NCBI GenBank assembly: GCA_001275005.1
Contig: JWZX01003402.1
Span: 1-38,894 of the forward strand
Direction: 5' to 3'
DNA: 38,894 nt
DNA from: Chrysochromulina tobinii
Lineage: Eukaryota
Each line of letters opens with the position of its first letter. The stretch's first letter is position 1. Shown here in pieces: positions 3,777-38,729 of the stretch. The notes under the pieces were generated by a model. It searched no databases and was not told the origin of the DNA. It saw only the letters and a program-made list of their open reading frames with translations. The position numbers and the translations under genes are program-made.

Positions 3777-3839
3777 AACTGTGCATGAGGTGGCGTTGGT
3801 GAAACAAAACTGTGCATTGAGGTGGCGTTGGTGAAACAA
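3777..3839. repeat. Tandem duplication of a 31-32 bp unit
   Basis: AACTGTGCAT(T)GAGGTGGCGTTGGTGAAACAA x2, just upstream of the SGNH gene. Confidence 0.85.
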
Positions 3840-3910
3840 AGTAACCGTTTTGCATCTTGCATGCGAGCGACACAACTTACCGTGACATTTAGACGGAAAC
3901 CTCACACCCT

Positions 3911-9975: not shown

Positions 9976-10315
9976 GACAAACTCGCAAGTGGAAATCAAA
10001 CGTAAACCTGGTCGCGTAGGTTGGTGAATGCGGCATCAAACTACACAAAGGCAGCCTGGTGAGCTCACACAGACACACATTCACATTCATACACATTAAC
10101 AGTTTAACACCATATGGCGGGTTGCGTCTTGCGTGACAGTGGTGACGTTCGGTATAGTACCGGGATCGCATCTCTGCACCAGTTGGTCTTTCAACCGGTG
10201 GTCTTTCAACCGGACTCGGTCGGTCGCGTCGTCGCGCGATTCCCCGCGTTTCAAATTCACGAGAGAACCCGCTTTCCTTTTCGATTTTGGGCTGCGATCG
10301 GCCACAATCATCCAC

Positions 10316-12533
10316 ATGGCCAAGGCCAAGGCCAAGAAGGCCGACGGTGCAGCCAAGGCGGCCAAGCCAGAAGGCGGCAGCAAGAAAAAGGGCGGCGGCA
10401 AGGGCGGAGGTGGCAAAAAGAAGGGCGATGGTGCCAAAAAGAAGGGCGATAGTAGCAAAAAGAAAGCAAAGGCCGAGGGAGCCAAGAAGAATGTCAAGGC
10501 CGCCGCCAGTGCTCCCGCTGACGCCGGTCCGAGTGCGAGCGTTCCAGCTGTTCCCAAGCCAGCTGCCCCCCCGCCAGCTACTCCCAAGGCGGTCCCTTTT
10601 AGTTCCACCGCTGCAGCAGCTGCAGCTGCTAAGCTGCAAACAGCCCCGCCTGCGCTGCCAGATCCGTTTGAGGTGAATGAGCTGAGGGCAAGGATTGCAC
10701 AGCTCGAGGCGCTTTTGAGAAGCGCGCCTGCGCTGCCAGCTGCTGCGACGGTTGGTATTGGAACGCAAGCCAGCGCCGACGCTGCCTTCCTACGCGCGGC
10801 GCTGTCTGAGCCCGCTGCTACACCAACAGGACCCGTCGCTGTGGCCGCACCACCGCTCCCGCCTTCGCCGCCGCCGGCAGTGCCAGAGCTCACACGTGGG
10901 TTGTTGAAGCGGGAAGCCGAGCTCAACGAAGCTGCAAATGCTGACCTTCCGCCACAACCTCCGCCAAAGCCGCCAAGACAGCCCTCGCCGCCCACTGCTG
11001 CCGCTGCTGCTCCTACTACCACCGCCGCCGCCGCCACCACCGCAGCGGCTGCGGTCCCAGCATCGAAAGGAAGTGGAGAAGGCAAGAGTGCACCGAAGAC
11101 TGCCGAGGTTGGCAAGGACGCCAAGAAGAAGGCTGCTGCCGCTGCTACCCCAGAGGTGGCCAAGCCTGCATCGAAGCCAGCGCCGATACCACCTGCACTG
11201 GCGCCTGCGCTTCCGGAGCCGGCGCCAGACTTCTCACGTGGGTTGTTAAAGCGAGAACCCTCACGTGGGTTGTTGAAGCGGGAAGCCGAGCTCAACGAAG
11301 CTGCGAGCACCATGGCAGATATTTGGGCTGCAAATGCTGGAGTATCGCGAAAGCCTCCGCCAAAGCCGCCACGACAGCCCTCGCCGCCCGCTGCGCAGCC
11401 GCCCTCGCCGCCCACTGCTACCACCGCTGCTCCTACTACCACCGCCGCCGCCGCCGCCGCCGCCACCGCTGCCGTGACTGCTGCGGCTGCGGTCCCAGCA
11501 TCGAGAGGAAGTGGAGAAGGCAAGAGTGCACCGAAGACTGCCGAGGTTGGCAAGGACGCCAAGAAGAAGGCTGCTGCCGCTGCTACCCCAGAGGTGGCCA
11601 AGCCTGCATCGAAGCCAGCGCCGATACCACCTGCACTGGCGTATGTATCAAAGTCACCACCGTCGGCTGCGGCTGCGTCAGCGTCCGGAGGCTCACCTCC
11701 AGGCCCCGTGGCGCTGCCGCCGCCGACCCACCTGCACAAGGAAGGGAGCTTGGGCGGCTTGGCCGCGACTGCGCAGCAGCGGGCTCGGGACAGGGAGGCG
11801 GCTGAGCGAGCCGCCGCTGGCGGAGCCTCGCCACCATCCCAGCTCCCTGAGCCATTGCCTGTTGCAGGCAAGGGCTCACCGGGTAAGGGCAAGGGCAAAG
11901 CTGAAGGGGCGTCTGCGGCGGACTCGTCGAGCGCGGGGCTAATCCTCTTTGATCGGACGCACGACATTGGAACCTCCAGGTGATTGCCTCTGATGGCCTC
12001 TGATGGCCTCTGATTGCCTACCTCATCAGCTGACCCTCTTTGATCGGACGCGCAGCGCGGGCGCCAGCCACAGTCCGAAGGCGGATGAGTCCATGCATCT
12101 CTTCGTGCAAGAGCTCGTGCTCGAATGTGCAGAAGTTGCAGCGGACGATGCGATCTATGCCGAGGAGATGAGAGTGGCGGACGAAAGCGCCACGAGGCGC
12201 ACGTCGCGCTACACGGCGCGCGGCTCGGCGCGCGGCTCGGCGCGTGGCACGTACCGCATGCTACGCAATGGCTGGGTCAAGCTCGACGAGTCTGAGCTCG
12301 ACGCGTCAGGCGAGCTGGGCGACTTTGCTTCCCTCGGCGAGGTGGGCTTTGCTGAGGAGTTTCGGCATGCACGTGAGCGCGGCAATAGTAGCACTCCTTC
12401 TGGCTTCACGAGCGGGCAGGAGGCGGAGCTCGTCGCCGAGCTCCGGGGCGTCCGCGCCTCCGCGGTGCTTGAGCGCGCCAAGAGGAAAGCCATCGCAGGC
12501 TCTGTCAAGGAATGGTTCTGGTTTGACCCGTGA
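10316..12533 (+). CDS. Lys/Ala/Pro-rich low-complexity protein with internal duplication; 2 predicted exons
   Basis: Exon 1 10316-11979, exon 2 12056-12533 (2142 nt, in frame). Basic N-terminus MAKAKAKKADG..., coiled-coil-like VNELRARIAQLEALL, C-terminal KRKAIAGSVKEWFWFDP. Confidence 0.55.
10890..11641 (+). repeat. Intragenic duplication of a ~100-125 codon module
   Basis: RGLLKREAELNEAA...PPPKPPRQPSPP...GSGEGKSAPKTAEVGKDAKKKAAAAATPEVAKPASKPAPIPPALA occurs at ~10890-11201 and ~11260-11641 with near-identical DNA. Confidence 0.9.
11980..12055 (+). other. Predicted intron with TGAT(T/G)GCCTC 10-mer array
   Basis: CCAG|GTGATT donor, four 10-mers at 11981-12020, CTGAC at 12030, GCGCAG acceptor; phase-2 splice joins the two ORFs. 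Confidence 0.6.
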
Positions 12534-15376: not shown

Positions 15377-15590
15377 CGACGCGCCCCGTCGCGCAACTTT
15401 TCATGCAAAGATTCAAGACAGTAGTAAAAAGATCTGACCGGTAAAAACTTGGCGCCCGCTCCATGCTCGACGCGCGGTGCTTCATGATCTCGACGCTGCG
15501 CTCCCAGGTCGGCTTTGCCGCGGCCGTAGCGCACGCCCGCCTCCGTCTCTCGCGTCTCGAGCTCATCGGGGGCTCTGGCCGCACAGCCGG

Positions 15591-15726
15591 CACAGTGTTC
15601 AAAGCCTATGAGGTAATTACCTGAGTAGTGAGAAGGTCCCCCTAGGTCAAAAATGCGTTCCACAGTGTTCAAAGCCTATGAGGTAATTACCTGAGTACAA
15701 GTGGGAAGGTCCCCCTAGGTCAAAAA
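15591..15726. repeat. Tandem ~70-bp duplication with internal palindrome AGGTAATTACCT
   Basis: Units start at 15591 and 15661; first 37 bp are identical and both continue GAAGGTCCCCCTAGGTCAAAAA. Confidence 0.9.
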
Positions 15727-17604: not shown

Positions 17605-18212
17605 TGCTCTTGCAACTCGAGCACCAGCACCAGGTGTGGCGTGTGGGGAGTTGAGAAAAGGTCAGCTTAGAACGACACAAACGCAGCGGTCGCGTCGCAA
17701 GGTGGATAGTTAGGCTTCTAGGGGAGTTTGAGAAAAGGTCAGTTGAAGCCTCGGAAGAGATCGTATCCCATCTCCTCCCATCTTCTAACCAGAGTCGGCC
17801 AGCGTGGGACCTGGGTTGGCACCCGGAGGTCGTCGCGAGGTCGTGCCTCGTGCGTGCGTACGTGCGAGCGCGCGTGCGAGCGTGCGTGCGTGCGCGTGAG
17901 CGACGGTGAGTCGGTTATTGTCAGGTTCGTCCCCCCGGTGATTTTGAACTTGTCGGGTATCTTCCCAAAGTTCTTGAATGATCGATTCAATCTCGAACGG
18001 CGACGCGCCTTTGTCGTGTGTGGGTGTGACGAGGCTTCAACTGACCTTTTCTCAAACTCCCCTAACTTTCCACCGTGCAAGCAAGCAAGCAAGTTCTTTA
18101 ATCGAAACACTTGCTTGCTTGCTTGCTTCGACCGTGCGACGCGACCGCTGCGTGTCGTTCTAAGCTGACCTTTTCTCAACTCCCCACACCTGGTGCTCGA
18201 GTTGCGAGGGCA
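17605..18212. mobile_element. Nested foldback/MITE-like non-autonomous element
   Basis: Outer inverted arms ~17605-17703 and ~18131-18212; inner perfect 35-bp inverted repeat 17719-17753 / 18030-18064 ending in TA. Confidence 0.8.
17752..17977 (+). mobile_element. Dispersed repeat family B, copy 1
   Basis: Collinear with 20089-20294 (CGGAAGAGATCGTATCCC...TGTCAGGTTCGTCCCC...AAGTTCTTGA). Confidence 0.8.
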
Positions 18213-18245
18213 GAACTCTGCGTGGTCCAGCCCAACGCCGCTGTG

Positions 18246-19868
18246 ATGAGCGGCAAGCAGCCGGCGGCTAAGCGGCGCAAGCCTTCGTCTTCGGGCGACC
18301 TGCTCGATAGCATCCTCGGCGGCATAGACAGAACCATGTCCACAACTCCGGGAGCCTTCCGCGCCGAGGAGGAGCCCGAGGTGGCGTCACACTACCAGAT
18401 AGTGCGCGCGCCGCCGGCCAGCGACCTGAATCGCAAGAGCATGTGCCGCAACTGGGAGTGCGGAGGGACCGAATTCGAGAACGACTACCGCTCTGGTGAC
18501 CGCGTGTGCCGCTCGTGCGGCGCGGTGCAGAATGCGCGCAACTGCGAGTCGCAGGAGGAGGAGCACCGCACGTTCGCCGACGACGACAAGAAGGATTCGA
18601 AGCAGCGCACGTCGCGCAGCGCCTCCACCGGTGTGGGCATGGCCAAGCTCGAGCAGGCCAATCAGCTCGCGCACGGGCAGGCGGACGGCGACGAGCTCAC
18701 GCATAAGCAACGGAAGAAGATCGCGGATTACAAGGACAAGGTGACGGTGCTCTCGGACGCGCTCGAGCTGACTGATACCATCAAGTTCGACGGGCACATG
18801 TTATGCGAGGACCTCGTACGCAAGCAGCATGAGCATGACGTGCAGTGCGGCAAGGGTGGCACGTGCCGGCTGACGCTGCGCCTGCGCCCGGCGGCAGTGA
18901 TCGCGGCAGCCTTGCTCAAGGAGGCCATGCGCAAGAACGGCATCGATCGGCTCTTCGAGGAGCTCAAGAAGGTGCTCAAGGGCGACGATGTTGACGCCGC
19001 AGACACGGGCAAGGTGGGCAAGACCCACGCCATCGTGCGTGACCTGCTCAAGGGCGCGCCCTATCCATGCGCAGATGAGGACTCAGGCCGGGCGGCCGCC
19101 GCGGCCGCACAAGCAGAATCCCTGCGGCTCGGCGCGAGTGGCAGCAGCGAGGGGAGTGCGGCCGGTGCGGCCGGTAGGGGAGCCGACGGCAGCATCACTG
19201 CGGCGCCTCATCCGGCAATAGCGTTAGTGCCTCGGCTGACGACACGGTTGCATCTCCCCTACTATCTGGAGCGTCGCGCCGTTGAGTGTATCGAAGACTG
19301 GTCCCTCTTCGGGCTGCCCGCGCTAATGCCGCAGACGATCTCGGCCCTTGCACTGCTGCGCGCCTTTGAGGAGCTCGTGCAGCCCAAGCTGCGAAACGGT
19401 AAGCAGAATCGACCGCTGCCGCAGCTGCCGAAGCTCTCCGTAGCCGACATCGCCCAGGAAGCAGGTCTGACGGAGAAGACGCTCACGCAGCACATGAGGC
19501 ACGAGGACCTGCCTTGGCCAACACTGCTCCTGCAGGACCTCGCGCACCGGCTCGCGCCGCCGCCGCCTTTCGCCTTCCGCACCGAGGCGCAGAAGATCCT
19601 CGACCGTATCTTGCAAGTGCCTGGCAACCCAGCCGCTGAAGCCACAAGGGAGTGGAGCCGGAAGTTGACACCACGTCTCGTGGCCGCATGCGCGCTGCTC
19701 CTCGGCGCTCGCAAAGCTGCCGCCGACGAGGCCGCCGCCGCCACTGTGACCGCCATCACCCCCACGGAGCCGCCCGACACGGCGGCTGTCGCCGCCGCAG
19801 CAGGCGTCAGTCCGCAGGCCCTCGATGCCGCGCTGGCAGCCTACCCGCCAGCACAAGTGACTATGTGA
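18246..19868 (+). CDS. Transcription factor IIB (TFIIB/Brf)-like protein
   Basis: Zn ribbon CRNWECG...GDRVCRSCG, B-reader-like EEEHRTFADD...QRTS, cyclin-fold repeats (PAAVIAAALL; PQTISALAL...VADIAQEAGLTEKT); NLS-like AAKRRK. Confidence 0.85.
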   Translation: MSGKQPAAKRRKPSSSGDLLDSILGGIDRTMSTTPGAFRAEEEPEVASHYQIVRAPPASDLNRKSMCRNWECGGTEFENDYRSGDRVCRSCGAVQNARNCESQEEEHRTFADDDKKDSKQRTSRSASTGVGMAKLEQANQLAHGQADGDELTHKQRKKIADYKDKVTVLSDALELTDTIKFDGHMLCEDLVRKQHEHDVQCGKGGTCRLTLRLRPAAVIAAALLKEAMRKNGIDRLFEELKKVLKGDDVDAADTGKVGKTHAIVRDLLKGAPYPCADEDSGRAAAAAAQAESLRLGASGSSEGSAAGAAGRGADGSITAAPHPAIALVPRLTTRLHLPYYLERRAVECIEDWSLFGLPALMPQTISALALLRAFEELVQPKLRNGKQNRPLPQLPKLSVADIAQEAGLTEKTLTQHMRHEDLPWPTLLLQDLAHRLAPPPPFAFRTEAQKILDRILQVPGNPAAEATREWSRKLTPRLVAACALLLGARKAAADEAAAATVTAITPTEPPDTAAVAAAAGVSPQALDAALAAYPPAQVTM

Positions 19869-23354: not shown

Positions 23355-23456
23355 CGCCGCAGGGGATAATGTGCGCCCGGCGGCGACGCGACCCTAAGGC
23401 CTTGCTTGATTCAACCAAAAACTAAACATAGGTCCCGGTACCCGGTATACCGGTAA

Positions 23457-23645
23457 AAAGACGCCGGGGGAGCCGGGACACTCACGGGACACACACGGGA
23501 CACGCGGGCGCACTCAAAGGCACACGGACCACGCAGACGAACCTCACAACCATCCAAACCCACCAACAACACACATCCCGCACGTCAGCGCGAGCACGAC
23601 CGAAGCCGCGGCCGACTCAACAGCCACAGGCCCGGAGCCGACCGC
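23457..23645 (-). mobile_element. Dispersed repeat family A, copy 2 (truncated)
   Basis: Reverse complement of ~15884-16086. Confidence 0.75.
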
Positions 23646-23678
23646 TCAATACCCGGTATACCGGTACCGGATCCGGTG

Positions 23679-23906
23679 AAAAGACACCGGGGGGAGACGG
23701 GACACACATGGGACACACGTGCGCACAAGGGCACACGGATCACACAGACGAACCTCACAACCATCGAACCATCCCTGCAACCCACCAACGCACCTACACG
23801 GCACAAGCACGACCGCACGACGACCGAAACCGCGGCCGACTCAACAGCCGCAGCCCGGAGCCGACCGCACCCCGCGGCCGACTCAGAAAAGGCCGCCCCC
23901 AGCGAA
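23679..23906 (-). mobile_element. Dispersed repeat family A, copy 3
   Basis: Reverse complement of 15847-16086; in tandem with copy 2. Confidence 0.8.
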
Positions 23907-27721: not shown

Positions 27722-27858
27722 CGGCGACGCGTGCGGCAGCAGCGGGCCCCTAGCATCTCGTGCATGTATTAACAAAAAAATTCCGGCGCAGTCACGACCT
27801 TTTCAACTGTGAAATAACGGCGGACCACGTTTCTCGGGCGCCCGCCCCTAGACGCCAC

Positions 27859-29145
27859 ATGGCATCGCTCCAAGCACGCATAGCCGAACTGGCGCGGCAC
27901 CCAGCGACGGCCATTTCACTTCGAGACCTATACAAGGCCGGAAACAAACCGAGCCGGAGCATGCGCCTGCAGAATGCAATCTTTTTGCAGCGCGAGCTGC
28001 CGATACGGATGGCTCAGCGCATTGTGGAACTCCAGACGCTGCCGTTTGGCCTGAACCATTCGCCCCACATCCTGAAAGTCATCGGCTGGTACTCATCCTT
28101 CGTTGACACGATCACTTCGATGCCGCGCGTGTCTTCCGTCGACGACGAGGACCGCTTCACCAGTACGATCGATGCGCAGTTGCAGACGCCCAGCCTCGTC
28201 ACGGCGATGCTATCGGCGGCGGTGAGCCAGTCAGCCGCGTCGATCAACGACCCATCAACCGACAGCCGCCGGCAGCCGGCAACGCGCACGCAGCGGGTGG
28301 ACTTCATGCAGAAGGCGCTCGACCGCTTCTTCACCGCGCGGATCGGCCTGCGATTCCTGATGGAGCACCACGTGAGGATCAGCCGAGTCCAAGAGGAGAA
28401 CTGGTCGGGCATCATCCAGGCCAACTTCAACCCGGCCGACGTCGTGCGGCACGCCGCGGAAGATGCGCGCCACTTATGCGAGGACGAGTACGGGATCGCG
28501 CCCGAGGTCGAGGTGCGTATGGCGGACGTCGAGGATGAGCCGAGTGCGACACGCAACAATCGGCTCACGTACGTCCCAAGCCACATGCACTACATTTGCA
28601 CCGAGCTCCTCAAGAATGCCATGCGTGCCACGACGACGCGCCATCGGCGCGCGCCAGGGCATAATCTCCCGCCCATCGTGGTCACGATCGCCTTTGGCAA
28701 GGATACCCTCGGCGTGCGCATCTCGGACGAGGGCGGCGGCATTGCGTTGGCCGAGACCAACCGCGTGTGGCGGTACGCATACACCACCGCTCCCGTGCCG
28801 CTCATCGAGCTCGACGGCTCCGCAGACGCGCCACCTCAGACCCTCCGCCGCTCCGCGCTCGCTGGGTACGGCATGGGATTGCCGCTCAGCCGCTTGTACA
28901 GCCAATACCTCGGCGGGCGTCTCGACTTGCGATCGCTCGAAGGACACGGCACCGACTGCTTTCTGCATCTGCCGCGGCTGGGCGCGGCGTGCGAGACGCT
29001 GCCGGCGGTGGTGCGTGCGTCGCCCGCGGAGCGCGACTCGACGCCTGGCCCAGGTGGCCTCTCTTCCTATTCGATGAAGGCCGAGCTGAGCGAGTACGAG
29101 TACGCGGTGCTCAGCGAGAAGCTGGCCGAGATTCGGCACGATTGA
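27859..29145 (+). CDS. PDK: Mitochondrial pyruvate dehydrogenase kinase / BCKD kinase family
   Basis: FLQRELPIRMAQR, LDRFFTARIGLRFL, ELLKNAMRAT (N box), ISDEGGGI (G1), LAGYGMGLPLSRLY (G2), EGHGTD. Confidence 0.92.
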   Translation: MASLQARIAELARHPATAISLRDLYKAGNKPSRSMRLQNAIFLQRELPIRMAQRIVELQTLPFGLNHSPHILKVIGWYSSFVDTITSMPRVSSVDDEDRFTSTIDAQLQTPSLVTAMLSAAVSQSAASINDPSTDSRRQPATRTQRVDFMQKALDRFFTARIGLRFLMEHHVRISRVQEENWSGIIQANFNPADVVRHAAEDARHLCEDEYGIAPEVEVRMADVEDEPSATRNNRLTYVPSHMHYICTELLKNAMRATTTRHRRAPGHNLPPIVVTIAFGKDTLGVRISDEGGGIALAETNRVWRYAYTTAPVPLIELDGSADAPPQTLRRSALAGYGMGLPLSRLYSQYLGGRLDLRSLEGHGTDCFLHLPRLGAACETLPAVVRASPAERDSTPGPGGLSSYSMKAELSEYEYAVLSEKLAEIRHD

Positions 29146-31060: not shown

Positions 31061-33823
31061 TCAGCGACTGCAATCAACAAAAAACCAAAAACCAGTTGCC
31101 AGTGAGGATGTCTGCCCTCCCCCCACCAGGCTGTTGATAGTCCTTGATGTCAATTTTCGGAAGCAGCTCATGCAAAGTTCGTCTTCACGAACCAGCAGCG
31201 TACCTTCCAAGGCCTTGCCATTGTAATCAGTACACTTTTGCCATCGACTCCCCTGTAGCTGCACGCGCCACATGCCGCTCGGAGCGTCGTACGTCTGAAC
31301 GACGGCACGGACAGGCCCAGGCGCAACTTTGGCGACGTACACAACGGTGCCCTCGTGTATCGCAGCGCACTCAGACCCAGCCTTGCCGTGCACTGCGTTA
31401 CGAATCGAGGCCTCCCCTTCCTCCTCGATATCTAACCAGCTGAGGTTGCACTCGATTAATGAGCGATTGACCAATAGCAGATTGGCCACGTGCTTGGCGC
31501 CTGCTGTCCCACCAATGTTGTCGTCGGCTTCATCATAATCTCCGCTCAAGTCAAGCTCCTTGAGAGTGGTGTTGCCTTTCAGTGCATCACAGATGAGTTT
31601 GGTGCCTTCCTCTCCCAACCCATTCCTGGCGAGCGAAAGTTTGGTGAGCGAGCGGTTGATGCCAAGCATGTCAGCTACATGCTTGGCACCTGCAGCATAG
31701 CCGATGTTGTTGTAGGCAGGGAAACTGCCACTCAGATCGAGCTCCTTGAGCGTCTTGCTGTCTTGCAGAGCCTCGCAGAGAGACTTCGTGCCATCCTCGC
31801 CCAGCATGTTACTGGCGAGCGACAGCTTCGTTAGCGAGCCGTTGATGCGCAACGCGTCGGCGATCGCAGCTATGCCCTTGACGATGTAGGTGCCGCTCGG
31901 ATGCAATCCGGTCTGCGCATTATCGTTCATTCCACAGAGCTGGTTGGCGTCGAGATCGAGGCTCATTAGCGAGCTATTTGCAGCGAGCGCTGGCGCAAGG
32001 GCGTTAGCACCTTCTGGACCGAGGTGATTGTACCGCAGGCAGAGCGTTGCTAGTGAGGCCATTGCAGGTAGGAGTCCTGCCACAACCATGATGCCCTCGT
32101 CGCCAATCCCCTTTCCATTTATGTTGAGCTCTGTGAAGGAGTCGGCGCGCATCTCCTTGATCGGGATGTCGTTGAACATCTCGATCTTGAGGTTACCGAG
32201 GACAGCCGCTGAGAGCTGTGCAGCGCCGTCGCCCGCGATGATGTTCCCGCGGACGTCGACACGTAAAAGCGAGCGGTTGACCTTGAGAGCCTCGCCAAGT
32301 GCCGAAGCACCTTCTGAGCCAATCCGATTGCAGGTGAGGTCGAGCGACGTGAGCGAGCTGTTGACGCGGATTGCTTCGACAATGGAGCGAGCACCCTCTG
32401 GACCAAAGAAGTTGCGCGAGAGGTCGACGCAGGTTAATGAGCGATTCACGCAGAGAGCATTCGCAATTGCTGTGATACCCTCTGCGCTGTAGGTGCCGAG
32501 CAGGCTGTTCACGTATCGACCCCCCCACCATCCGTTGCCGAGGCCGTTGGCGAGGCCACCAAACGGGCTCTTCGCGAGACCGCAAAGAAAGTTTTCAGAG
32601 AGATCGAGGCTCGTGAGTGAGGCTGTGGAAGCAACGAGATAGCTGAGGAGCATGGCCCCCTCCAATCCGAGTCCTTTGCGTGACAAGCCGAGCTTCGTGA
32701 CGCTCTCCTCGAGGACTCTCAAGCCCGCACAGGCGACGGCTGCGGTCGTCAGCTTCAACGGTGGCTCACCCTCGCCTGATATGCAGCTGTAAACAAGAGC
32801 ACGATTGAATGCTAGATGAGCTCGATGAGGAAGATGCTCACGATGGTAAGCTGGGTGGCAGCCATACTCGGGATAACCCTCTGCAGCTCGGAGCCTTAAA
32901 GGAGCCTCCGTGATGCGCTGATGGTCTCTGACGGCCGCAAACATTTGGTCCGCCACTTCCGCGGCTCGGATTTTCGCCACGTCCACTTCGAAGCCGTAGC
33001 CATGGATGCGTGCCAGTCCGGGCAGCATCCGCCCCGCTATATAGACTTCCCACGGCCGGCCGGCCTCGATCAGCTTCTCAACGTCGAGGTCGGTGATCTC
33101 ATCCAGTTGTGTGGGTACCGGCTGCCCGTCACGGCGGCACAGGCGCGAGCACAGGACACGTCGCGCCAGCGCACGCCAACGTCGATTCATGCCCTTAAGC
33201 TCGACCAATGTGGCCACGTCCACAAGGCCCAGAGCAGCCTCCTGGGCATCTGTCGTGGCTAGCACCCCCGAGAACGAGGGCTGTTTGAGCAGTGCGGGCG
33301 GTTCTATGGAGCTGGCCGGCTGCCGCGGCTCCTCGAAACTTTCTGGGACAAAGGCTGACTCGGCAAGTGTCGCCGCATGTTCCTCCGCGCTGCCAAAGTC
33401 GCTACCCTCGCCAAGCAGCGCACGGATTTCTAGAGCGCGCTTGCCGTTGAGCCGGGAGGCAATGGCTCGCTGGATTTGCTTGAGCGCCATGGGGGCGTCG
33501 AGGCAGAGGGCGTCCTCGATGAGATTGAAAAGCTGTACTAGTGAATGCTCGTAGAGCTGGTCCATGCTCGGCCACGTGTATTCTGGGTCATTCAGTTTGC
33601 ACACCAATAGAAGCGCCGAAGCCCTGATCGCAGGCATTGCATATATGCCATTCTCGGAGGTGGCGAAGTCCATGAGATCCTTAATGGTGCCGACGAGCCG
33701 GGCTGCATTGCACGACAGCGTGACCTCCTCCCCATCTCGCGCTCGCACACGGATCCGCTCGTTGGCCGTGCCCATCGGGCCCATGGAGGCGGACAGAGTG
33801 CCAAGTGCGTTGCGTGAGGCCAT
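31061..33823 (-). CDS. Skp1-like + F-box-like + RNI-type leucine-rich-repeat protein
   Basis: Skp1 pattern (IRVRARDGEEV...GTIKDLMD; LFNLIEDALCLD...IASRLNGKRALEIRALLG), F-box-like LVDVATLVELKGMNRRWRALA, many SLTxLDLSxNxLGxEGA repeats. Confidence 0.8.
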   Translation of the reverse strand: MASRNALGTLSASMGPMGTANERIRVRARDGEEVTLSCNAARLVGTIKDLMDFATSENGIYAMPAIRASALLLVCKLNDPEYTWPSMDQLYEHSLVQLFNLIEDALCLDAPMALKQIQRAIASRLNGKRALEIRALLGEGSDFGSAEEHAATLAESAFVPESFEEPRQPASSIEPPALLKQPSFSGVLATTDAQEAALGLVDVATLVELKGMNRRWRALARRVLCSRLCRRDGQPVPTQLDEITDLDVEKLIEAGRPWEVYIAGRMLPGLARIHGYGFEVDVAKIRAAEVADQMFAAVRDHQRITEAPLRLRAAEGYPEYGCHPAYHREHLPHRAHLAFNRALVYSCISGEGEPPLKLTTAAVACAGLRVLEESVTKLGLSRKGLGLEGAMLLSYLVASTASLTSLDLSENFLCGLAKSPFGGLANGLGNGWWGGRYVNSLLGTYSAEGITAIANALCVNRSLTCVDLSRNFFGPEGARSIVEAIRVNSSLTSLDLTCNRIGSEGASALGEALKVNRSLLRVDVRGNIIAGDGAAQLSAAVLGNLKIEMFNDIPIKEMRADSFTELNINGKGIGDEGIMVVAGLLPAMASLATLCLRYNHLGPEGANALAPALAANSSLMSLDLDANQLCGMNDNAQTGLHPSGTYIVKGIAAIADALRINGSLTKLSLASNMLGEDGTKSLCEALQDSKTLKELDLSGSFPAYNNIGYAAGAKHVADMLGINRSLTKLSLARNGLGEEGTKLICDALKGNTTLKELDLSGDYDEADDNIGGTAGAKHVANLLLVNRSLIECNLSWLDIEEEGEASIRNAVHGKAGSECAAIHEGTVVYVAKVAPGPVRAVVQTYDAPSGMWRVQLQGSRWQKCTDYNGKALEGTLLVREDELCMSCFRKLTSRTINSLVGGGQTSSLATGFWFFVDCSR

Positions 33824-34353
33824 CGCGTCAGAGCGTCGTCGTCGTCCAGCTTCACCTCTCTCAGAATCGCTCGCTCGCAAGGTGTTGAAAGCAAGCGCTC
33901 GCGGGGCAAGCGCTCAGCATGGCGCGTGTTCGGCAGCCATTGGAACTAGCCTCCACCCGCTACAGTTTCGCTACGCCGCATCAAAACAGCGTTTTTGAAC
34001 AGGCATAATTTGTCGTCACCGGAAGGGTTGAACGCACCTGCGGCCGCGGCGGGCCGCTGTCCCTAGAGAATTCGGGAAACATGACTCTGCCTCGGCACAG
34101 TCGGTGCGTGTGCGCTGGACGGCCCTCCACACACACACAGCCTTGGCTCGAACTCGACCGATTCTGTAGAGCGCTTGCGTCTCCTCTCGCTCGGGCTGAC
34201 CGTGCCGGCGATGGGCGCTGTCACCGTACCGAGCCTCTCTAGTTCACGTGTTACGTGCATGCGTCCACATCCACACGACGGCCGGAGCCACGGCCTCGCC
34301 CACGGGACCGACCAACCAACGGCCGCCTGCCCCGCGACGCGACGGCGCGCGGC

Positions 34354-37300
34354 TCAAGGCCGGAGAGCCTCGCGCGCCGGGTCGAGCACCTCCGCCTTGA
34401 TGCGAGGGTAGTCGGGATACTGCCCGAGGACCTTGTGGCACACATCGATGGCTTCGACGTACTTCTTGGCCTTGAGATAGTTGAACGAGAGCTTGTACCC
34501 GACCGCGGCGGACGCCTCGTTCTCAAAGCCCCACGCCTTTTCGTAATGCGAGGCAGCGTCCTTGTACGCGGCCTCCTTCTCCTTGACGACACCGAGGAAC
34601 TCCCAAGCCTTGGCGCACGACTTATTGGAGGCGAGGCAGCGCCAGCAGAGCTCCTCGGCGAGGTCGTACTTGCCGCCCACGATGTACACGTCCGCGAGCA
34701 TCAGCCAGCCGCGCTCGAAGTCGTCAATGAGCTCGGCCTGGAAGGCAATCTTGGCGACGCGCTTCAGGTGATTACGCGCCTTGGGCGCCTGCTTGAGCAT
34801 CAGATAGGCCTGCGAGAGGCAGACGAGCGCGGGCAGGTAGTCCTTCTCGACGCCGAGCAGCTCGAGGAGCATCGCGACAGCGCGGTCGATCTGGTTGCGC
34901 TCCTTGGTGGCCAGGAGCATGTAGCACTCGAGCACCTGTCATCAGGGGTCATCAGGGGTCATCAGAGGTCATCAGGGGTCATCAGAGGTCATTAGGAGCA
35001 TGTAGCACTCGAGCACCTCGCGCCGTGCCGAGCTCGGCATCTCGCGCAGCAGCCGCTCGGCGGCCTTGACGGCCTCGTTCGGCTCGGCGGGCGCGTCCAC
35101 GTTCAAGTTGTCCCAATTCGTCTCATTCTCCGGGTTCAGGAAGATTTCGATCATCTGTCGCAGCGCAGGCTCCCCATACTCGCCGTCGCGCCTTGCCATA
35201 TTTAGGTGGCGCAGCGCGGCGCGCGGCTGGTTCTGGTAGCGCGCGAGCAGCCCCTGGCAGTAACGGAAGCCCGGCTCGAGCGCGGCGCGTGGCGACGAGC
35301 GCTCTGCATTCTTGAGCACCTGGATAGCCTCCGCCATGCGACCCGCGCGCCGCAGCAGCGAGAGCATCTTGGCGATCGCGCCGAACAGGGCAGGCTGCTT
35401 CAGCAGCAGCTGCTCGAAGTGGTAGATGGCCGCATCCCACTCGGACTTTTGGATCATGATGTCCGCAATCAAGATGCGCGCCGCGTCCAGGTCGGCCGGG
35501 GGCGCCGCGTTCAGCGTCATGAGCGACGAGCACTGCTGCTGCGCCGCGTCGACCTCGCCGCGCGCGAGGTGCAGCCGCGCGAGGGCGAGCATCACCTTCT
35601 CGTCGTCCTCGTTGTGCTTCAGTGCTGTCTTATAGGCGTCGAGGGCCGCGTCGGTGTCGTGCAGCTGCTCATGGAGAGCGCCGAGCTCCATCGCCACGCT
35701 GGCCGCGACAGCCTGCCACGTGGCGAGCGTCATCAGCGGTCATCAGCGGTCATCAGCGGTCATCAGTGGCAATCAGTGGCAATCAGAGGCACTCAGCGCA
35801 CCTGCTGAGTCGCGAGCTGATCGGCGCCGCCCGTCTCGGCGCGCAGCTGCGCGAGCGCGTTCTGCTGGTTGCTCTGCGCTTGGTGGAGCGCCTCGAGCGC
35901 CTCGGGCAGCGCGTTGAGCGCCTTGTGTACCTTGGCCTGCAGCTGCAGAGCCTTGGTGACGAGCAGTGCGTCCTCGATGACCATCCTCGCACGCCCCCCG
36001 CCGTCCGGCACCGCGCCCGCGCTGTAGCCACAGGCGGCGATCAGCTGCTTGAGCTCGGTCATCGCCGCGTCGTACCGCTTCAGGTTGAGGTAGAGCGCCG
36101 CCAGCTCGTACCGAAGCGGCGTCTTGCTCGGATCCGCTGCTGCCGCGTCTGAATAGTACTCGATGGCCTTGGCGTACGCATGTGTGCTCACGAGCACGTG
36201 GCCGATGCGCGACGCGAGCACCGGGTCGTTGGGCGACTTGCGCAGTGCCGTCTCGAAGGCGGCGATCGCCTTCTCGGGCTCCAGCACCGCCATGTACGCC
36301 TCGCCGAGCATCATGTACGAAGCGACCGTCGGGTTCGCCGCAGCCACCTCCTCGTGGCACGCCGCGTACGCGCGCTTGTCGTTGCGGTGCTCGAGGTAGA
36401 GGTCGGCGAGCGCCTTGCGCGCGGCGTGGTAGTGGGCTGATTCGCTCGGGATGGCGCGCAGCAGCTGGAGCGCCGACTCGATATCTCCTTTGACCACCTG
36501 CACCTTGGCGTTTGCGATCTGAAGGCGCCCCTCCACCGGCGTGCCATCAAACTCGACCACGGCCGCTGCCATTGCACTCTGCGCCTCCGACACCTTTTGC
36601 TGCGCGAGCAGCGCATCGACCAGCTGCATATGGAGCGAGCACTTGTCGCTCAGATTGAGCTTGAGCTCTTCGGGCAACGTCGTCGGCGGCGGCGGCATGG
36701 CCGCGCCGCGCTGCCGTCCACCTGCGCTCTTTTGGTTCTGCGCGCCGGCGCGCGCGCCCGCGCCGCCCTGTGCGGCGATGGCGCGGCTGAGCATGGTCTC
36801 AGCCTCGGCGAACTCGCCTTGCAGATGTAAGATCTGAGCCTTGATCAGTTGGAAGAGGGGCTGCTCGCGCACCGCAAAGTTGTGCGATAGCGCCGAGTCG
36901 AGCACTGCGCCCGCCTGGCGCGTCTTGTCGAGCTTGAGCAGAATCTGCGCATGGAGCAGCGCCGCGTCCGCAAACGTCGGATCTGCCTTCGCAATGGACG
37001 AGCAGCAGCGCAGCGCGGCCTCGTAGTCAGCGCGCAGGTAGTGGGCGCGCGCGAGCTGCATCTGCGAGTCGAGCAACCCGGGCGAGTGCTTGGCCACCTC
37101 GTGCAGCACGCGCGTCGCCTTGCCAAGCAACTGCGCAGCACGGGAGCCCTCGTCGAGGGCCGAGCCGTCCGCCTCGCCACAGTGCTTGAGGTACTCGCGC
37201 GCGATCTCGAGCAAAAAGTCAGGGTTGAGGCTCGCGTAGAAGGCCGAGCCGAGTGGAAGCTTGCGAGCCTTGGCCAGCTGCTGCGTGCTCGCGCGGTCGA

Positions 37301-38729
37301 GATGGCCGACGGCCGTGTCGACGTCCTTGTACCGCCGGCTCGCGACCAGCGCCATGTTGAAGCTCATCTCGGGCGCAGGCGCTGCCTGCAGCTCCTTGAC
37401 GAACTCAAGCTGCATCTCGGCGTCGAGGATCTCGCCCGCGAGGATCTGGCTCTTGATCAGAAAGGGCATCACCTCATCGGCGCCCTCCTCGAGTGACGAA
37501 GCGCGCTTGAGCACCTGCATGGCGCCTTGATGGTCCTCGAGAAGCATCAGCTGGTACGCATTCTCGGCCGCGTACTCGGCCTTGTCCGGAGCGATGCGGC
37601 ACGCGGTGTTGGTCAGCGCGAGTGTCAGGGACAGCAGCGCAGGGTTACGCCCGGCGAGGCGCGCAAACGGGCGCGCGACGTCGATGTACAGGCGGGCGTT
37701 GAGCGGCTCGTGCCGGTCGAGCGCCTGAGAGAGCTCTGTGAGCCGGCTCGCCGCCGCACGCGCGTCCGTCTCCTGCGAAATCGCGTGCAGCGCGCACACG
37801 CGGAGAGCGTCGAGCGTACCTGTGGGGAGAGGGTGGCGCCGTGGTGAGCACATGCATGCAGCGCAGGGCATGGACTGCGCACTCGCGGAGAAAAGCGTAG
37901 AGCGCGTACCCGCCCCTGCGCCGCGACCGCCCTGGTTATCCGACTGCGCGAGCACGCGCTGCGCGGTCTCGACGGCCTGCTCCCAGTCGCCCAGATTGAG
38001 CAGCACGAGCGCCTTCTCGGCCAGCGCGGGCAGGAACCACGCGTACAGCCCGATGACCTCTGAGAGCTTATCGAGTGCCCCACGGTGGTTTCCCTGCATC
38101 GAGGCGAGCTTCGCGATGCCCATCATCGCGTCGAGATCCTTTGCCCCGCCACCCGCCTGGATGGCCTGCTCGAAGAAGCTCTCCGCGGCCTCAAACTCCT
38201 CCGACGGGTCGCCGTTGCACGCCTCGCTCGAGAACTTGACGCCCGAGAGCTCCTTCTCGGCGTCCGCGAGCTCGAGCCATCCCGAGAGCACGAGCGCGGG
38301 CACGTTGGATTTCTGCATGCGCAGGATGTGCTGCACGTGCTGCTTCGCGTCGAAGGTCTCGCCAAAGTGCCACAGCAGCTGCGCCGCCGTCATGCGCGCG
38401 CGGTCGGGCACCGACGTGTCCTCCGTCGAGCCCATCAGCTCCGTCTCGAGCCGTGTGAGTGTCTCGGTGTCGACGACCTTGCACGCGCGGTGCGCGTGCA
38501 TCAGCGCGATCTTGAGCGGAAGCTGCATCTGCGGGTCCGCGCGGCGCAGCATGGCCTCGAGCTCGCGCACCGCCTCGCCCGCCGCGCCCTCCTTGATCAT
38601 GCCAAAGGCCTTCCACAAGGACACGAGCGGGTCATTGGCGCGCTTCTTGAGCACCTCAGCGCACACAGTCTGCACATGCCGGTAGTAGCCGAGGCGCGCG
38701 TAGTAGTTGACGAGCGAGAGCACTTCCAT
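34354..38729 (-). CDS. TTC21B: Tetratricopeptide repeat protein 21B / intraflagellar transport IFT139, 4 exons
   Basis: N-terminus LVNYYARLGYYRHVQ; C-terminus GYKLSFNYLKAKKYVEAIDVCHKVL..YPDYPRIK.EVLD.AR..LRP. Exons 38729-37910, 37819-35802, 35712-35017, 34935-34354 total 4116 nt (1371 aa). Confidence 0.95.
34936..35016 (-). other. TTC21B intron 3 (81 nt): duplicated exon sequence plus 10-mer array
   Basis: GAG|GTGCTC...GACAG|GTGCTC; phase 0; perfect 25-bp direct repeat at 34913-34937 and 34994-35018. Confidence 0.9.
35713..35801 (-). other. TTC21B intron 2 (89 nt) with 10-mer array
   Basis: CAG|GTGCGC...GGCAG|GCT; phase 0; TGAGTGCCTC, (TGATTGCCAC)2, (TGATGACCGC)3. Confidence 0.9.
37820..37909 (-). 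other. TTC21B intron 1 (90 nt, in-frame, stop-free)
   Basis: G|GTACGC...CCCCACAG|GTACGC; the translated insert interrupts the TPR helix QRVLAQ...TLDALR; donor position is less certain than the acceptor. Confidence 0.7.

Follow-up and report, generated by a model that had tools for sequence, protein, structure and literature searches.

How does a stretch of inserted DNA become a spliceosomal intron? The origin of new spliceosomal introns is a long-standing question, and clean cases in which the scar of their birth is still intact are rare. The question is raised here by a short intron in a contig of Chrysochromulina tobinii (JWZX01003402.1 of assembly GCA_001275005.1, positions 1 to 38,894 of the forward strand), which was analyzed over its whole length of 38,894 nt and is referred to as the window. 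The intron is the third of the IFT139/TTC21B gene and holds an array of 10-nt units between two copies of a 25-bp coding sequence. In an initial annotation, made from the sequence alone, it had been described as an intron apparently caught at birth, in which a perfect 25-bp target duplication around a 10-mer array supplies both splice sites; a staggered break or a target-primed event, filled by reiterative templated synthesis, had been proposed as its origin.

Structure of the third IFT139 intron

The IFT139/TTC21B gene occupies positions 34354..38729 of the minus strand, with its ATG at 38729 and its TGA at 34354, and the four-exon model (38729-37910, 37819-35802, 35712-35017, and 34935-34354) gives a protein of 1371 aa with one stop, the terminal one. 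In a protein search with the query exon, 16 longer proteins were matched. The best matches were environmental proteins with TTC21B-type Pfam domains, the orthologues being 55-77% identical, and the named matches were TTC21B from a chytrid and from an insect. With three orthologues as tblastn queries, 38744-34369 was covered in two blocks.

Within this gene, AGGAGCATGTAGCACTCGAGCACCT (25 bp, plus strand) is present identically at 34913-34937 and 34994-35018, with starts that are 81 apart and zero further matching bases on either side of the two copies. The 56 bp between them amount to 5.6 units of GTCATCAGRG (Tandem Repeats Finder: period 10, 5.9 copies, 89% matches). The flank-to-flank alignment score at this array is 25, which was reached by 0 of 200 shuffles. 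Over the whole window, 39 short-range imperfect repeats were counted against 0-2 in block-shuffled windows, and these 39 are mainly coding or tandem repeats. The 25-bp duplication is not explained by chance.

Read on the minus strand, the duplicate is AG|GTGCTCGAG..., so that the first copy gives the GT donor and the second copy the AG acceptor of an 81-nt GT..AG intron (34936..35016, minus strand; hereafter intron 3). In the copy that comes first in gene order (34994..35018), the AG at 35018-35017 forms the final two exon bases, and 35016-34994 (GTGCTCGAGTGCTACATGCTCCT) forms the initial 23 intron bases, the source of the GT donor. The insert (34938..34993) follows, reading AATGACCT and then (CTGATGACCY) units on the coding strand. 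In the downstream copy (34913..34937), the AG at 34937-34936 is the acceptor, and the last coding exon begins with the 23 bases 34935-34913 (VLECYMLL). Since AGGT is found only once in the 25-mer, the canonical borders of intron 3 are unique, and with GT as donor and AG as acceptor, as in U2-type introns, its removal restores the frame. The spliced reading is ...SSARRE|VLECYMLLATKERN, given as ...RRE|VLECYMLLAT in the initial annotation, and retention of the intron leads to VLECYMLLMTSDDP followed by a TGA stop. In 10 of 10 aligned orthologues, the junction is colinear, with no insertion or gap (...S.R[RQH].VL..Y.L...).

On one side, the array passes into the duplicate without a change of register through a common CCT (coding strand; AGG on the plus strand), so that one junction has a 3-nt microhomology and the other none. 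Across the five complete units, the tenth base is T, C, T, C, and C. No inverted repeats were found inside the insert or at its ends.

Splicing of the intron and properties of its array

Metagenome contigs were scanned for the exact 25-mer, which gave five loci (L001-L005). Four of them (L001-L004) come from four different metagenome records, lie on contigs of 13-66 kb, and match 3.1 kb of the window at 99.1-100% identity; each carries both 25-mers and an identical array. The filled structure is thereby seen in five independent assemblies, the window included, and an assembly artefact is very unlikely because four separate genomic contigs agree. The fifth locus, L005, has a single 25-mer, and its 116 + 693 + 807 = 1616 aligned exon bases agree with the window without a mismatch. 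It lacks exactly the 81 nt of intron 3 (35016..34936) and exactly intron 2 (35801..35713), and its open reading frame (ORF) is continuous through both junctions. Collapse of a repeat or of the assembly graph cannot explain the loss of intron 2, because no exact terminal repeat is present in that intron. Contig L005 is most likely derived from spliced RNA, and intron 3 is real and almost certainly spliced.

That the structure is an artefact of assembly, or an unspliced insertion that disables the gene, has a close to negligible probability. Some algal strains without flagella have lost IFT genes (PMC4438323; the literature cited here and below is represented by partial texts), which would lend some plausibility to a disabled copy. 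Against this stand the agreement of the four independent assemblies, the intact ORF, a third-position GC content (GC3) of 0.86-0.90 on both sides of intron 3, and the existence of an intron-less contig of the same genotype. The initial annotation has thus stood up well on structure: the perfect duplication, the supply of both splice sites by the duplicated AG|GT, and the lack of terminal inverted repeats (TIRs) in or around the insert were all recovered, the duplication is no artefact (filled form in 4/4 independent genomic contigs), and L005 supports splicing or, failing that, the existence of a same-genotype form that lacks the intron exactly.

Several properties of the array may bear on its use as an intron. 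A CTRAY branch-point-like motif occurs at intron offsets 21, 31, ... 71, that is, every 10 nt, and by motif match the AG acceptor has candidate branch-point adenines 16 and 26 nt upstream. Within the array, TGA is present in all three sense frames and in zero antisense frames. The minimum free energy calculated for the intron 3 RNA is -3.4 kcal/mol, weaker than in 196 of 200 shuffles, and the RNA is accordingly predicted to be unstructured. In the sense orientation, the array would be well suited as an intron body, and survival would presumably be limited to sense insertions at a good AG|GTGC site. As a separate observation, each array unit (34940-34989, minus strand) holds CUGA and UGAUGA, which are the D-box and C-box motifs of C/D small nucleolar RNAs (snoRNAs); a box C/D snoRNA was rejected as a candidate, the sole Rfam match being one to archaeal sR3 whose 19.7 bits fall below the gathering score of 41.

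Related arrays and duplications at other sites

Arrays of the CTGATxxCCx type are present at three sites in the window, namely, intron 2, intron 3, and a site at 11981-12019 referred to as array C, and 3/3 read CTGAT... on the coding strand. Intron 2 (35713..35801, minus strand) is an 89-nt GT..AG intron that sits 700 bp upstream of the intron 3 array in the same gene. It contains CTGATTGCCA twice and CTGATGACCG three to four times, and its array matches that of intron 3 at 92% over 38 nt.

Array C, which is located in a plus-strand ORF, forms a second repeat-flanked insert (11944..12051, plus strand). The sequence CCTCTTTGATCGGACGC stands at 11944-11960 and again at 12035-12051, with 17 bp exact and 21/23 matching when extended. 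The 74-bp insert between the copies (11961-12034, plus strand) reads GTGATTGCCT(CTGATGGCCT)2CTGATTGCCT...CCTCATCAG, in which 19 and 15 nt of non-array sequence flank the array. If the 91 nt from one repeat to the next are deleted, ORF 10100-11980 and ORF 11994-12530 become one; the frame is likewise preserved by a candidate GT..AG intron of 76 nt with canonical borders (11980-12055), through which HDIGTS takes the place of R. A protein search for the array C gene found no longer relatives. Among the 20 tandem arrays in the window, significant flanking repeats were found only at the CTGAT-type arrays at 11981 (z = 11) and 34938 (z = 16.7).

The remaining intron of IFT139, intron 1 (37820..37909, minus strand), is a 90-nt GT..AG intron that is free of arrays. 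The 33 nt with which it begins (37909-37877) imperfectly duplicate the opening 28 nt of the exon that follows (37819-37792), and their alignment score of 14 was equaled in none of 1000 shuffles and in none of 578 exon windows. The rest is an unrelated 57-nt stretch, and the insert is unrelated to the CTGAT-type array. Duplication lengths thus differ by site: 25 bp at intron 3, 17-23 bp at 11944/12035, and about 28-33 at intron 1. An ORF-fusion intron scan of the window gave 27,188 candidates, being too permissive in GC-rich DNA, and the best 40 of 27,188 added no convincing case. A side observation concerns P0004, a 708-aa environmental orthologue, which shows no interruption at the sites of introns 2 and 3 and diverges into non-homologous sequence after DDFERG; this divergence resembles read-through into an intron where the window has none, which hints at lineage-specific intron positions.

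Outside the window, the array pattern had four matches in prokaryote metagenome-assembled genomes (MAGs) (L006-L009). L006 and L008, with a GC content of 48-50% and only three units, look unrelated and were rejected. L007 (GC 55%) and L009 (GC 66%) look, from their sequence, like eukaryotic contaminant contigs with array introns; L009 is a foreign contig binned with a Gemmatimonas MAG. The complete array intron of L009 reads CAG|GTGATGACTT...(CTGATGACCT)n...CCCTCATCAG|GT, and its borders share CAGGT at most. A second array at the end of the same contig matches intron 2 at 97% over 30 nt. At 1324-1397 of L009, a 30-nt direct repeat (28/30, spacing 42 nt) directly precedes the start of an array intron (GAG|GTGCCACTGATTGCC...). 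A scan of viral contigs with the array pattern gave 0 stretches, and a looser pattern gave three unrelated phage repeats.

The array introns have some ends in common, namely, a GTGAT... start (array C and L009) and a ...CC[T/C]CATCAG end, CCNCATCAG (array C, L009, and L007). These features raise the possibility of a mobile introner family, in which array introns that bring their own ends (GTGAT... to ...CC[T/C]CATCAG) transpose and intron 3 is a truncated member. Mobility of this kind would also be in keeping with the array intron ends TGATGA and TCATCA, which are mutual short inverted repeats, and with published Chrysochromulina introners, which have 4-bp target site duplications (TSDs) and no TIRs (PMC9860276). 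It is nevertheless considered unlikely. The 10-mer unit is common to three window sites and two foreign contigs, but the similarity is driven by the repeat: the copies are alike in the unit only, and the tenth-base variant differs from array to array. A target duplication of fixed length and TIRs were both lacking, as the duplications are long and of variable length and no inverted repeats were found at the insert; in addition, the complete array intron of L009 has no more than CAGGT in common at its borders. Intron 3 itself has neither the GTGAT start nor the CC[T/C]CATCAG end. Because both family ends are missing, its insert is an internal fragment of an array.

Origin and age of the intron

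How, then, did an internal array fragment come to lie between two copies of an exon sequence? The reading preferred here, which is given an even chance, is that intron 3 arose recently, when a staggered break with 25-nt ends underwent fill-in and took up a copy of an array that already existed. A break with 25-nt staggered ends would have occurred inside the exon, and fill-in of these ends would have duplicated the 25-bp coding stretch. An array copy, presumably from another intron, would have been caught between the broken ends. The duplicated AG|GT would then have become acceptor and donor, and the insert could serve as the intron body because every 10-nt unit has a CTGAT (CTRAY) branch-point-like motif. 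Copies left unspliced would meet TGA in all frames and would probably be subject to nonsense-mediated decay. As in neointrons ascribed to staggered breaks, a direct repeat of the exon end is found at the intron's opposite end, and it overlaps the splice sites.

The perfect duplication fits the staggered-break or target-primed origin that the initial annotation had put forward. The same cannot be said of the reiterative, telomerase-like synthesis proposed there for the insert. De novo synthesis at the break, telomerase-like or by slippage, would explain why the insert is a nearly pure 10-mer and why the array begins in register with the CCT of the target. However, the array unit is already present in other introns of the window (intron 2 and the array at 11981-12019), in L007, and in L009, and the tenth bases T, C, T, C, C are unlike the product of a single 10-nt template and suggest a template of at least 20 nt or an array that was already mixed. 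De novo synthesis is therefore judged distinctly unlikely, and copying of an existing array is likelier because arrays of the CTGAT type fill other introns.

A stronger rival to the filled staggered break, though still a somewhat unlikely one, is target-primed reverse transcription. In this alternative, the nickase and reverse transcriptase (RT) of a retroelement would have copied an array-bearing RNA (a tail like that of long or short interspersed nuclear elements, or an excised array intron) into a nick. With the same limited probability, a staggered second nick would have produced the 25-bp duplication. The lengths of the duplications (25; 17-23; about 28-33) vary by site, which is typical of target-primed reverse transcription and not of transposases, the microhomology is confined to a single junction, and introners from non-long-terminal-repeat retrotransposons have been reported (PMC12130899). 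On the other hand, a search of the window, limited to Pfam on 15 ORFs, revealed neither an RT gene nor a longer parent element, the unrelated insert of intron 1 rules out a single element, and the 19 + 15 nt of non-array sequence that flank the array C insert resemble a captured piece of another locus.

A broader and tentative proposal is that this lineage makes introns from a minisatellite body. Arrays of (CTGATGACCN)n would be inserted with target duplications of 15-30 bp, and any exonic AG|GT would then turn the insertion into an intron in one step. It is equally tentative that the body is suited to this role, in that the arrays would bring a branch point per 10 nt, stops in three frames, and no secondary structure.

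Several points weigh against a filled staggered break as the origin of a recent intron. The variable repeat lengths of ~15-30 bp fit target-primed reverse transcription at least as well, and the sample consists of one 38.9-kb window and two short foreign contigs. For intron 2, the similarity between exon end and intron end is not significant, as 101 of 1000 shuffles and 66 of 578 exon windows score as high. The derivation of L005 from RNA is itself a deduction, for which an intron-less allele or a retrocopy would be the alternatives, and the contig is chimeric, with AT-rich, plastid ccsA-like DNA to the left of L005:1410; the 317-aa ORF in L005 1-1409 presumably encodes a plastid cytochrome c biogenesis protein CcsA, which we take from a WWD-type motif recognized by eye. 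As to age, no empty genomic allele was found among 5/5 genomic sequences, all of which are filled, and the perfect 25-bp repeat, the sole argument for recency, gives an upper age bound only.

The last points also mean that the phrase "caught at birth" in the initial annotation claimed too much. All five filled sequences represent essentially one IFT139 haplotype and therefore set no minimum age. Of the 27 aligned positions at which L004 differs from the window over 33413-36518, 26 fall in 33431-34064 and one in the 2.4 kb of IFT139. This cluster lies between a leucine-rich repeat (LRR) gene and the 3' end of IFT139, a mosaic haplotype pattern that suggests recombination. From the 23 free intronic sites that are unchanged, a neutral divergence below roughly 0.13 (95% bound) may be deduced, and intron 3 is likely young.

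An older intron would be expected if an existing array intron had later been given, at its 5' end, a copy of the downstream exon by local duplication or conversion. Intron 2, with its CTGAT-type array and no clear repeat, may be such an old intron, and the 30-nt duplication (28/30) beside an array intron of L009 indicates that array borders may be prone to duplication. However, the duplicate in intron 3 starts exactly at AG|GT and gives the donor, so that an older donor would have to be replaced without loss of frame, and the orthologous proteins are unchanged in length at the site. An older intron that was duplicated secondarily would be the less parsimonious reading and is considered highly unlikely.

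The value of this case lies in a scar that is perfect (25/25) and in splice sites that both demonstrably stem from the duplicated target, so that intron 3, likely a recent gain, shows how an insertion can become an intron in one step. If this holds true genome-wide, as two further cases in the window hint, it would constitute a way of gaining introns in which the target duplications are long and of varying length and the intron bodies are satellites. Array-type introns would be filtered out by published pipelines, and a genome-wide scan would in that case be a direct test of repair-based against element-based intron gain.

Other repeats and genes in the window

The window contains further repeats apart from these inserts. 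At 3777-3840, two copies of a 32-bp unit (96% matches) have GAGGTGG inside. A tandem duplication of ~70-73 bp at 15588-15726 includes perfect repeats of 37 bp and 22 bp, and its unit holds the palindrome AGGTAATTACCT. At 17645-17742 and 18036-18179 lie two copies of TTGAGAAAAGGTCAG (77 bp apart) and two of its reverse complement (124 bp apart); these copies enclose runs of (CGTG)n, (GCAA)4, and (CTTG)4 upstream of and into the ORF 18102-19865. To judge by sequence, the arrangement at 17645-18179 looks like a miniature inverted-repeat transposable element or a palindrome. A tandem duplication of ~211-224 bp at 23434-23885 has several near-identical blocks of 16-46 nt and is apparently non-coding. 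Lastly, a PDK/BCKDK-type kinase ORF is present at 27754-29142, for which an environmental protein is 98% identical and the nearest named relatives, about 41% identical, are non-haptophyte. Neither the search with this kinase nor that with IFT139 matched a close relative with a name, and the haptophyte placement implied in the initial annotation gained no confirmation from them.

Comparison with known intron gain systems

In the texts consulted, no description was found of introns with target duplications of 15-30 bp and a satellite body, and supplementary material may hold relevant families. The literature on array-type introns in Emiliania or Chrysochromulina likewise yielded nothing relevant. 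The Emiliania genome paper reportedly describes repeats of 10-11 nt in many introns.

Four types of published intron gain, as far as they are described in those texts, resemble intron 3 in part. The first comprises the neointrons of Daphnia pulex, which arise from the repair of staggered double-strand breaks and have counterparts in Drosophila and Aspergillus (PMC4202315, PMC3020277). Both in Daphnia and here, transposon features are absent and the filler is foreign or of unclear origin, although in intron 3 the filler is a recognizable minisatellite common to other introns. The repeats of Daphnia neointrons measure 4-12 bp (PMC4202315), in contrast to the perfect 25 bp of intron 3 and the ~17-33 bp of the two other sites, a difference to be added to the points held above against a filled staggered break. 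Polymorphism for presence and absence, on which the evidence in Daphnia is centered, was not observed among the five genomic sequences of one haplotype examined here.

The second type consists of introners in which the target duplication provides both splice sites, namely, the class 14 introners of Polarella glacialis, with the TSD AGGH (bioRxiv 10.1101/2020.10.14.339549), and an introner family of Florenciella sp., with a 4-nt TSD (PMC9860276). As in intron 3, the insert carries no splice site of its own, and the duplicated AG|GT becomes acceptor and donor. These introners, however, are multi-copy elements with a fixed 4-nt duplication, whereas intron 3 has a 25-bp duplication, in a setting where the length varies by site, and a tandem-array insert without defined ends.

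The third type, the introners of Chrysochromulina sp., comes from a possibly related host lineage and shares with intron 3 the lack of TIRs and the short length (about 70 nt). Compared by description and not by sequence, these introners differ in that they have 4-bp TSDs and their own donor, only the acceptor being co-opted from the target (PMC9860276 Fig. 2C).

The fourth type is intron gain by tandem duplication of an exon segment that contains AGGT (PMC3265369, PMC4974935). There, too, donor and acceptor both derive from the duplicated AG|GT, and the spliced message is exactly the original one. The difference lies in the extent of the copy: the entire intron copies the adjacent exon in that type, whereas in intron 3 only 23/81 nt are exon-derived, matching the next exon, and a tandem-duplication intron was rejected on this basis.

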